A stretch of DNA of 31,724 nt from Thermomicrobiales bacterium. GTDB taxonomy: Bacteria > Chloroflexota > Chloroflexia > Thermomicrobiales > JALYUS01. The first letter of the stretch is position 1. The number at the start of each line of letters is the position of its first letter. A model generated the notes under the pieces. It ran no database searches. It was not told the origin of the DNA and saw only the letters and a program-made list of their open reading frames with translations. Below, piece after piece: positions 7,770 to 10,145 of the stretch. Location of the stretch: contig JBBSFO010000001.1 in assembly GCA_038238655.1 (NCBI GenBank), positions 1-31,724 on the forward strand, in the 5' to 3' direction. A program made the position numbers and the translations under genes.

Positions 7770-10145
7770 ATGCGATCCTTTGTTCCATCCCGTCGTCGGC
7801 AGCCGGAACGAACAGACGCAAGTACCCCGAAGTCGATCGCGTCGCGCCAGCACGAAACATCGTTCACGTCTGCACCGAACGAAGTCGCCAGCGAACATAG
7901 GGACGCTGCGTCATTTCAGCATACCATCCAACGCGTCGCGTTTCCGCTCGCACGAATAGCGATCTTCCCACAAACGTCGCCCGGCATTGACCTGCATACC
8001 GGTGTGTTGCAGCGAAAAGGCGACGCCCCCGTCAACAAGACCGGGCTGCCGGACAATCTGAAGGCAGGCATCGAGTCACTCTCCGGCATCGCGCTGGACG
8101 ATGTGAAAGTCCACTACAATTCGTCGAAACCGGCGCAACTCCAGGCGCTTGCGTACACGCGTGGGGCAGAGATTCACATCGCGTCGGGCCAGGAACAGCA
8201 CCTCCCGCATGAAGTGTGGCACGTCGTTCAGCAGAAGCAAGGTCGCGTCAAGCCCACGCTGCAAATAGGCGGAGAGGCGGTCAACGACGACGCGGGACTT
8301 GAGCATGAAGCGGAAACGATGGGAAGTCGCGCGTCGAGCCAGCCGGCCACTCCCGATGCATCGGCTGCGGAACCGAGCATCCGGTCGGCGAGCGGCGACG
8401 TGGCGCAACTGGTCACGATTCCCGGCCGCGTCGTCAGCCCGACGGGGGCCAAGGTCTACAGGTCCATCGGCGTCATCAACTCGGACGCGATCGGCGGGAA
8501 GCGCGTCGAGAAGGGGACGCGCGTACGGATAGACAGCGAAACGTCTGTTGAGAAGTACGAGCACGTCACGATTGACGATGCCAAACTGGTGGACGGCTCG
8601 CCGATGCCGACCGCGCCCTATGGCTTCGTCGAGGGGTACATAAACCGCGACAAGCTCGAATTCGTCGGCGCGAAGGGCGGCGAAAAAGGGCTGAATACGG
8701 GCGTCTCCAAGGGTGTACTCGCCGAGGTTGATGCGTGGCTTCTTGCGGAAGCGAAAGCATCCAACAAGGAGAAACTGATCACCGAGGGCGGCTACATGGA
8801 ATTGAGCGACTTCCGCAAGATCGAGGTCTTCCGGCGGGCGGGCGTCGCCGTCAATATCCACGACGCGTCCTCGTTCAAGAAACTGAAGACGGGCATCGTC
8901 TCCGACAAAATTGACTGGGTCGCCTTCTCGGCGATCGTCCGGCGGATCAATGGGAATGCGTCGGCGCAAAAGATTTTCGATGGTGCGGAAGCCCGATCCG
9001 CAGGTGATCCCGCCGCGACGGGCGCGAAGATCAAAACCGGCCAGGCCCCATTCGAAACGAGCGCGACGGAATACGTCGGCTATGTTGGACTGGGAGGCGG
9101 CGCGGCTGCGTCGGCCGCATCGGCGATCTCCGCGCAGACCGAGTATTCATCGGCCAACCTGGTGACGAATATCGGCACATTCCACCAGTCAGGCGCCACG
9201 CAGGTGATGCAGGGGGCGGATATCGCCGGTGGCGCGCTGGCAACCGTCGCTAACATTACCGAAATCATCCGGACATTCCAGAACATCAAAGAAAAAATCG
9301 CGGGCGGATCAGCCCACGACCACGATATCGCCTTTGCCGAGATACCGTACCTCCTCGATCAGGTAGCACAAATCGGCACGTCCGTAGGGCGGATTGTGGC
9401 GTCGGTCGCCGGCGTCCAGGGGCATTTTTCGCTCGCGCAGGTCGGGTATGACCAGGCGTCGGCGGCGTCCGCCAGTCACAGCGCGCTCTTCCTGATCGGC
9501 GCGCAGGTCACTGGTATCCTGTCGGCGGTCGCGGGCGCGGCGAAAATGGCGAAGGGCATCTACGATGTCAGCGAAACGTCAGCGATTCTCAAAAACCTTG
9601 CGAGCCTGAAAACGTCGCTCACGTCGCCGGATTTCAAGCTAATGCTCGCCCAGTCGCAAGAGAGTCAGGCGCTGAAGCGAACCGTCGCGGCCGGGACGAT
9701 TGTCCAAGGTGCCGCGATGGTCGCGGGCGGCATTATGGTGGCGGTGCTGGCGACGAACCCGGTCGGTTGGGCGATCCTCAGCGCGGCGGCGATCTTCGGT
9801 GGGGCAATCGCCGCGTACAAGTACTTTAAGGCGAAAGCGAACCGAAAGAAGTTCGTGGATCGCCTACTCATTAAGAAGTTCGTCGGCATTCTGCGGAAAA
9901 GCGACGACGAGTTGGATGAGCAGGTGCGCAAGGAGCATCTGCACAAGCTCGGCTACACCAAGATTGACGTCTTCTACAGCGATGTTATGGCCGGCTTCGC
10001 GGCGGTGACGCATGCGGCATTGTCCGGCCCGCCGGCCGACACAAAGACAATTGAGGCGAAGCAGCTGGTCGCGGCGTGGAAGTTGAGCACCGATCCGACC
10101 AAGACAACGGCGCAGATGATCGCGAAAAAGATGCACGGTAGCTGA
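7770..10145 (+). CDS. DUF4157 (eCIS core domain) polymorphic effector with putative SH3-like domain and hydrophobic membrane-inserting C-terminus, 791 aa
   Basis: NKTGLPDNLKAGIESLSG...VKVHYNSSKPAQLQALAYTRGAEIHIASGQEQHLPHEVWHVVQQKQGRV...LEHEAETMG is canonical DUF4157 (nt 8034 to about 8335). Gly/Ala-rich hydrophobic helices at about 9484-9835. AAGGAG RBS. Confidence 0.88.
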   Translation: MRSFVPSRRRQPERTDASTPKSIASRQHETSFTSAPNEVASEHRDAASFQHTIQRVAFPLARIAIFPQTSPGIDLHTGVLQRKGDAPVNKTGLPDNLKAGIESLSGIALDDVKVHYNSSKPAQLQALAYTRGAEIHIASGQEQHLPHEVWHVVQQKQGRVKPTLQIGGEAVNDDAGLEHEAETMGSRASSQPATPDASAAEPSIRSASGDVAQLVTIPGRVVSPTGAKVYRSIGVINSDAIGGKRVEKGTRVRIDSETSVEKYEHVTIDDAKLVDGSPMPTAPYGFVEGYINRDKLEFVGAKGGEKGLNTGVSKGVLAEVDAWLLAEAKASNKEKLITEGGYMELSDFRKIEVFRRAGVAVNIHDASSFKKLKTGIVSDKIDWVAFSAIVRRINGNASAQKIFDGAEARSAGDPAATGAKIKTGQAPFETSATEYVGYVGLGGGAAASAASAISAQTEYSSANLVTNIGTFHQSGATQVMQGADIAGGALATVANITEIIRTFQNIKEKIAGGSAHDHDIAFAEIPYLLDQVAQIGTSVGRIVASVAGVQGHFSLAQVGYDQASAASASHSALFLIGAQVTGILSAVAGAAKMAKGIYDVSETSAILKNLASLKTSLTSPDFKLMLAQSQESQALKRTVAAGTIVQGAAMVAGGIMVAVLATNPVGWAILSAAAIFGGAIAAYKYFKAKANRKKFVDRLLIKKFVGILRKSDDELDEQVRKEHLHKLGYTKIDVFYSDVMAGFAAVTHAALSGPPADTKTIEAKQLVAAWKLSTDPTKTTAQMIAKKMHGS

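Follow-up and report, generated by a model that had tools for sequence, protein, structure and literature searches.

We analyzed a 31,724-nucleotide stretch of DNA from a Thermomicrobiales bacterium (contig JBBSFO010000001.1, hereafter the window), which is one whole contig of a 969-contig metagenome-assembled genome (MAG). According to a Pfam domain scan, the window holds a complete contractile injection system (CIS) locus. Within it, the open reading frame (ORF) P0001 (7770-10145, + strand; 791 aa), the target of this study, carries at its C-terminus a conserved and charge-free hydrophobic hairpin module, and is directly followed by a small gene, P0066, encoding a soluble and distantly YbjN-like protein. 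We propose, with a probability of about 0.5, that the target is a chaperone-escorted, membrane-inserting CIS cargo that is probably membrane-permeabilizing. This reading is the best supported because the hairpin is uncharged and its hydrophobicity is marginal, so that it has to be accommodated in a membrane, within an oligomer or by a chaperone.

A conserved charge-free hairpin module at the C-terminus

The region 8412-10145, corresponding to aa 215-791 of the target, had been described in a first-pass annotation as an SH3-like module followed by hydrophobic helices and a basic tail, and all of the peptides quoted there were found in the target ORF. Three hydrophobic Gly/Ala-rich helices are present at aa 570-592, 638-662 and 664-686, with Kyte-Doolittle 19-mer peaks of 1.7-1.95. 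The first of them (9477-9545, + strand) was delineated by hydropathy and conservation. The following two constitute a charge-free helical hairpin at aa 638-683 (9681-9818, + strand), in which 46 residues contain no D, E, K or R and an NPVGW turn is located at aa 663-667. A second uncharged stretch, of 30 residues, spans aa 562-591. The hairpin is followed by a basic stretch at aa 684-710 (9819-9899, + strand; family consensus YK..K..RKK..VD), and then by a small helical domain at aa 711-791 (9900-10145 with the stop codon, + strand), which is well conserved and was mostly modeled with a predicted local distance difference test (pLDDT) score above 90. The long hydrophobic helices of the first-pass annotation were thus recovered as a conserved, charge-free hairpin module. 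The basic tail was right only in so far as a basic stretch adjoins the hairpin; it is not terminal, as a conserved folded helical domain comes after it.

An exhaustive phmmer search with aa 215-791 against 1.84 billion representatives (E ≤ 0.001) gave 59 matches, distributed over Chloroflexota, Pelotomaculum, Paenibacillaceae, Bacteroidota and Blastocatellia, and the nearest relatives are Thermomicrobia or Chloroflexota by name. In four relatives (P0009, P0010, P0011 and P0014), the alignment extends from about aa 313 to the C-terminus, and in most of the others it covers about aa 545-790 only. The last ~245 aa therefore represent a conserved module without a family name, which is C-terminal in all aligned relatives. 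Based on an alignment of 44 sequences, the module consists of a Gly/Ala hydrophobic helix, a charged linker of variable length, a TQ motif, the hairpin (consensus KGAA..AGG....A..NPxGW.LLG.AA..GG), the basic stretch and the ~80-aa domain, in this order. In the same alignment, Gly589 in helix 1 is invariant and Gly596, seven residues further on, is conserved in at least 90% of the sequences. Gly647 in the hairpin is invariant as well, with Gly654, Pro664, Gly666 and Gly677 conserved in at least 90%, and Gly728 and Ile784 are nearly invariant in the C-terminal ~80-aa domain. Because they are conserved among the 59 relatives, the hydrophobic features of the target are not a product of chance.

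To compare these helices with genuine transmembrane (TM) helices, we used a rough estimate of insertion energies on the Hessa scale. The three hydrophobic helices of the target gave +1.8 to +2.7 kcal/mol, whereas genuine TM helices encoded in the same window gave -1.8 and +0.25 kcal/mol by the same rough estimate. Such marginal hydrophobicity, rich in small residues, fits a protein that would avoid the membrane of its producer yet insert after delivery. A three-helix bundle cannot bury all of the 70-odd uncharged residues, so that a membrane, oligomerization or a chaperone is needed. As far as can be judged from sequence, the hydrophobic helices are supported as a hairpin module such as a secreted, membrane-inserting protein would be expected to have.

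The target in its contractile injection system locus

The first part of the locus encodes a BTAD regulator, Pvc16, a WHD-AAA ATPase, a methyltransferase-TPR protein, the target, the 188-aa protein P0066 and a second Pvc16. Sheath, two tube genes, a 2061-aa protein, tube-LysM, VgrG, PAAR, gp25 and Baseplate_J follow, and after them come an FHA-fused P2_I baseplate protein and a Ser/Thr kinase bearing both FHA and Ig-like domains (together 27175-30992). The 2061-aa protein (15735-21920) is Tme-like and occupies the tape-measure position, with a DUF4157 near its C-terminus (aa 1804-1880). No tail-fibre gene was recognized in the window; together with the FHA-fused P2_I protein and the FHA kinase, this hints at phospho-regulation similar to that of type VI secretion systems (T6SS) or at a cell-associated action.

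The target has the layout of a cargo protein. Its ATG is preceded by AAGGAG 7 nt to the 5' side, and the protein starts with a variable leader rich in R, S, P and T (aa 1-92, 7770..8045, + strand; assigned from its composition), which on this basis is predicted to be disordered. The leader is followed by an eCIS_core/DUF4157 domain (aa 93-158, 8046..8243, + strand; Pfam PF13699, E 2.5e-9, 37.6 bits against a cut-off of 22), whose HExxH motif is intact as HEVWH at aa 147. A hydropathy scan found no hydrophobic N-terminal segment and therefore no signal peptide, in line with the first-pass annotation. Its view of the target as the variable payload of a DUF4157-type CIS cargo was likewise supported by the CIS locus, the eCIS_core domain with HEVWH and the cargo layout. 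A DUF4157 cargo with a variable payload is a kind of protein that is already known.

Three DUF4157 proteins of this genome share a start motif M/V-x-S-F-x(4)-R in the leader and a later P-x-x-x-I-P-x-F. The shared leader starts are located at 7770-7800 and 31168-31200 of the window and at about 1984-2013 (- strand) of contig C424 (locus L009). When the leader was aligned with those of close homologs, Ser3, Phe4, Arg9, Ile63 and Phe66 were invariant. The shared motif may be a system-specific loading signal.

Relatives of the module are found in comparable surroundings. eCIS_core was detected by Pfam on 20 of the 56 module relatives scanned, and no other trafficking domain was detected. In Pelotomaculum the module gene comes after baseplate genes, in Paenibacillus thalictri a relative lacking DUF4157 lies 6 kb from an AAA ATPase-Pvc16-sheath block, and in a Bacteroidota MAG and one further genome the module gene sits inside arrays of eCIS_core genes. 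In the Bacteroidota MAG (L004, 1-12946), four eCIS_core genes are interleaved with two YbjN-like small genes, and the hairpin module occurs only in the last of the four. In a sample of 401 Chloroflexota genomes, only that of the window itself contained the module, compared with 82 that contained eCIS_core, which argues for an accessory, variable payload rather than a core part of the system.

The adjoining gene P0066

P0066 (10194-10760, + strand; 188 aa) has a ribosome-binding site, GAGGGGAG, before its ATG, and the protein contains no long hydrophobic stretch. Its homologs directly adjoin the module gene, upstream or downstream, in all nine loci with usable context, at BLASTP identities of 29-37% and with hidden Markov model (HMM) E values of 1e-24 to 1e-71. 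In a tenth place, for which protein neighbors but no DNA are available, the same ~175-aa neighbors occur. In two loci (L015, 6650-12913; L017, 7610-11461), one partner gene lies between two paralogous module proteins, a layout that recalls, by analogy, binary toxins or translocator pairs sharing one chaperone.

The connection with YbjN was made by profile comparison. The P0066 family profile matched a neighbor of another eCIS_core gene (L004, 2895-3419) with an hhalign probability of 97.2% (E 4e-11), and this neighbor in turn matches Pfam YbjN with an E value of 8.1e-6. Against a bona fide YbjN protein of the same genome (L009, contig C424, 101-667, - strand; Pfam E 1.3e-8, 35.6 bits, above the cut-off), the family gave 49% and an E value of 1.7e-4. 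The gene of a second DUF4157 protein of 477 aa (580-2013, - strand) precedes that YbjN gene, and the pairing of DUF4157 cargo genes with YbjN-type small genes is thus a recurrent one in this genome. YbjN has a fold like that of type III secretion chaperones. A complex prediction of the module with P0066 scored 0.00 and speaks neither for nor against binding. In Pfam, neither P0066 nor P0001 matched DUF1795 or PAAR.

Structure models and fold searches

In the AlphaFold model, the module forms three long helices at aa 578-613, 620-660 and 666-703, of which the hydrophobic tip is less confident (pLDDT 58-63), and confidence is low for aa 215-296 and 414-574. Fold searches with models of 577 aa and 247 aa against PDB Foldseek, VIA wide, AFDB clusters, ESM Atlas and BFVD returned only nameless family members or generic long-helix matches. 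One AFDB match is named as an 'eCIS core domain-containing protein' and is a member of the family. The best generic matches were BAR domains (Z 10-12) and the N-terminus of IpaB (Z 9.0), which are below the level that is meaningful for helical bundles. Structure prediction of aa 215-791, as proposed in the first-pass annotation, thus succeeded in modeling the folded helical parts, but the fold search gave no specific match. An Atlas feature lead to an RTX N-terminal region scored 0.88, under the 0.9 level, and PDB sequence searches with the module, with P0066 and with the middle domain of the target gave nothing significant.

Comparison with known systems

The closest comparison in layout is with the AlgoCIS cargo proteins Cgo1 and Cgo2, which are located in the tube lumen (PMC8894135). 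Loading of AlgoCIS cargo requires the disordered N-terminal domain and does not require DUF4157 (bioRxiv 10.64898/2026.05.27.728243). The target shares with Cgo1/Cgo2 and with the DUF4157-type toxins associated with extracellular contractile injection systems (eCIS) a CIS locus, an N-terminal leader, a central DUF4157 with HExxH and a variable C-terminal payload (PMC8894135, PMC8213781). In contrast to Cgo1/Cgo2, its payload is not an enzyme-like domain but a hydrophobic hairpin module that belongs to no named family, and a YbjN-like partner gene is conserved with it.

Predicted TM helices or a TM hairpin also occur in the CIS effectors Tme of S. davawensis (PMC11126660) and Sle1 of S. lividans (PMC13277306), and the C-terminal domain of Sle1 is partly membrane-localized (PMC13277306). 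Both are linked to DUF4157, Tme in cis (PMC11126660) and Sle1 in trans via Sle2 (PMC13277306). By description, they resemble the target in the DUF4157 link and in a helical C-terminal region predicted to contain TM helices or a hairpin, whereas the target has neither a long coiled coil nor a nuclease domain and its tape-measure signal is a weak PHROG match. DUF4157 is N-terminal in the S. davawensis Tme group and near the C-terminus in the 2061-aa protein of the window.

Shielding of hydrophobic effector helices is known from T6SS prePAAR effectors, whose N-terminal TM domains are covered by Eag (DUF1795) chaperones (PMC12881460). As in the target, a contractile machine, an effector with hydrophobic helices and a small soluble neighbor that is a chaperone or chaperone-like come together there. 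The target is not a member of that family, however, as its module is C-terminal, its partner is YbjN-like rather than DUF1795 and its locus is of eCIS type rather than T6SS. Long helices and a moderately hydrophobic hairpin that inserts into target membranes are also features of other soluble secreted proteins, such as type III translocators, which have class II chaperones, and alpha-pore-forming toxins (colicin pore domains, ClyA/YaxAB). We propose the same for the target, but it has no significant sequence or fold match to them.

Proposed mechanism and alternative explanations

Loading of the target would most likely start from the variable leader, predicted to be disordered, as a signal for the AAA+ ATPase, whose gene lies two positions upstream; the DUF4157 would be the usual cargo-associated domain. 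In the producer, P0066 would most likely bind and shield the greasy module, keeping it soluble and loadable. After ejection, the hairpin would enter the lipid bilayer from the side of delivery, with the basic flank remaining at the membrane surface. The small-residue faces would then allow the helices to pack or oligomerize, so that membrane integrity would be disturbed by ion leak or depolarization. We infer permeabilization to be the likeliest effect of the module. The first-pass annotation had proposed a novel membrane-depolarizing CIS toxin. Of this, a CIS cargo with a conserved charge-free hairpin stands, but no tie to a known alpha-pore-forming toxin family was obtained.

Several points weigh against a chaperone-escorted, membrane-inserting cargo. 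Pfam, PDB and fold searches gave no sequence or fold link to characterized pore formers, and P0066 itself has no Pfam match (PF10722), its tie to YbjN running through other proteins. Basic residues on both sides of the hairpin equally fit an anchor in the membrane of the producer itself. The AlphaFold2 model packs the three hydrophobic segments as a three-helix bundle, so that a soluble or oligomer-buried state is possible. In addition, some relatives have no CIS genes within 10 kb.

Among the alternatives, we give some small weight to a translocon or tape-measure-like helper function, in which the module would form or seed a conduit or anchor in the target membrane so that other cargo could pass or work there, with the 2061-aa Tme-like protein of the same locus as a candidate, and would not itself be a toxin. 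Long helices combined with TM helices are also found in phage tape measure proteins, Tme and Sle1, for which entry into membranes has been proposed, and aa 572-692 of the target match the tape-measure family PHROG 1293 (E 0.0025 when aa 430-791 were searched, 0.19 with aa 215-791). The paired module paralogs around one partner gene would also suit such a translocon. The tape-measure signal is weak, however, and perhaps reflects composition alone; tblastn with the module found no match in 50,697 phage records, BFVD held no significant match among viral predicted structures, and the tape-measure position is taken by the 2061-aa gene rather than by the target. The rarity of the module among eCIS_core-bearing genomes also speaks against a general helper. 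A tblastn search of a plasmid collection with the module was equally without a match. Somewhat less probable is a producer-side anchor or trigger, with the hairpin in the cytoplasmic membrane and both of its ends in the cytoplasm, tethering or triggering a cell-associated CIS as in Streptomyces and thylakoid-anchored systems. The basic residues on both flanks suit this in-in topology, and the FHA-fused baseplate protein, the FHA Ser/Thr kinase and the lack of a recognized tail-fibre gene in the window suggest regulation inside the cell. On the other hand, the target carries a cargo-type leader and DUF4157, its marginal hydrophobicity differs from that of the real TM helices of the window, a soluble chaperone-like partner would be superfluous for a co-translationally inserted anchor, and within the phylum CIS loci greatly outnumber the module.

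The three-helix packing of the monomer model would be explained if the target were a soluble helical effector of some other activity, with its hydrophobic helices in a buried core or an oligomer interface and P0066 as its immunity protein. Genes adjacent to toxins are often immunity genes, and some eCIS-associated toxins have linked antitoxins (PMC8213781). We nevertheless consider this improbable, since a three-helix bundle would presumably expose too much for stretches of 46 and 30 residues without charge, the partner is related to a chaperone-like family, and Pfam revealed no enzymatic motif or domain in aa 200-791. Least probable of all, and very much so, is a holin-like lysis factor, in which the hairpin and charged tail would permeabilize the membrane of the producer and release particles. 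Class II holins have two hydrophobic helices and then a basic C-terminal stretch, an arrangement that the hairpin recalls. Release of eCIS is thought to need lysis, to which eCIS-associated toxins may contribute (PMC8213781). A protein of 791 aa with a cargo-type leader, DUF4157, a conserved folded C-terminal domain and a chaperone-like partner does not resemble a holin, and no PHROG holin match was found. Colicin and holin readings were both down-weighted as no match to either was found.

Beyond our main reading of the target, the module and its YbjN-like partner might constitute an undescribed cross-phylum two-gene cargo cassette of CIS. This would make it the first case of a membrane-inserting eCIS payload paired with a dedicated chaperone, with the module founding a new alpha-helical membrane-permeabilizing toxin family; this wider claim is tentative, and we hold it to be distinctly less likely than the reading itself. 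In our literature search, we did not find the payload family, the conserved YbjN-like partner or their spread over at least four phyla described, and no paper contained both 'YbjN' and 'contractile injection'.

Other regions of the target and the window

Upstream of the module, the segment aa 215-300 (8412..8669, + strand) occurs only in the close Chloroflexota relatives; it is strongly conserved among these 7 and therefore represents a real domain. The SH3-like label that the first-pass annotation had given to it was not upheld by any of the methods used. Pfam had no match at E ≤ 10, and at the same threshold PF08239 (SH3_3) marked 12 sites in the genome but none at 8412-8670. An hhalign comparison with seven SH3_3 domains of the same genome reached a probability of 0.3%, with only a 'GT.V' turn aligned, and neither a PDB profile search nor Atlas features gave a signal. 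In the AlphaFold2 model, this segment, whose alignment comprises 7 close sequences, showed isolated bridges only, at pLDDT 29-43.

The next domain, at aa 304-404 (8679..8981, + strand), is compact and helical (AlphaFold pLDDT 90-97) and is common to the more distant full-length relatives P0009, P0010, P0011 and P0014, with no match in Pfam, PDB or Atlas. It is followed by a Gly/Ala/Ser-rich helical region of low pLDDT at aa 414-569 (9009..9476, + strand). The module HMM also matches the target at about aa 426-467 and 473-505 (about 9045-9284 of the window), so that the motif of the first Gly/Ala helix is partly repeated in this low-confidence region. Over aa 200-791 as a whole, no Pfam, NCBIfam or PDB sequence match was obtained.

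At the right edge of the window, a further DUF4157 gene (31168-31722) is cut and apparently continues on contig C578. The edge gene and contig C578 share an identical stretch around HExxH, and the payload is a different one of ~500 aa without a Pfam match.

Implications

The eCIS cargo characterized so far consists mostly of enzymes. The pair of target and P0066 bears on the question of how a greasy protein that acts on membranes might be stored in a contractile particle and delivered by it, and what role small partner proteins may play in this. The hairpin module with its YbjN-like partner offers a concrete model for chaperone-assisted loading of hydrophobic cargo, and the module is a new candidate toxin or translocon family. 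A membrane-targeting module together with a solubilizing partner may also serve engineered injection systems.

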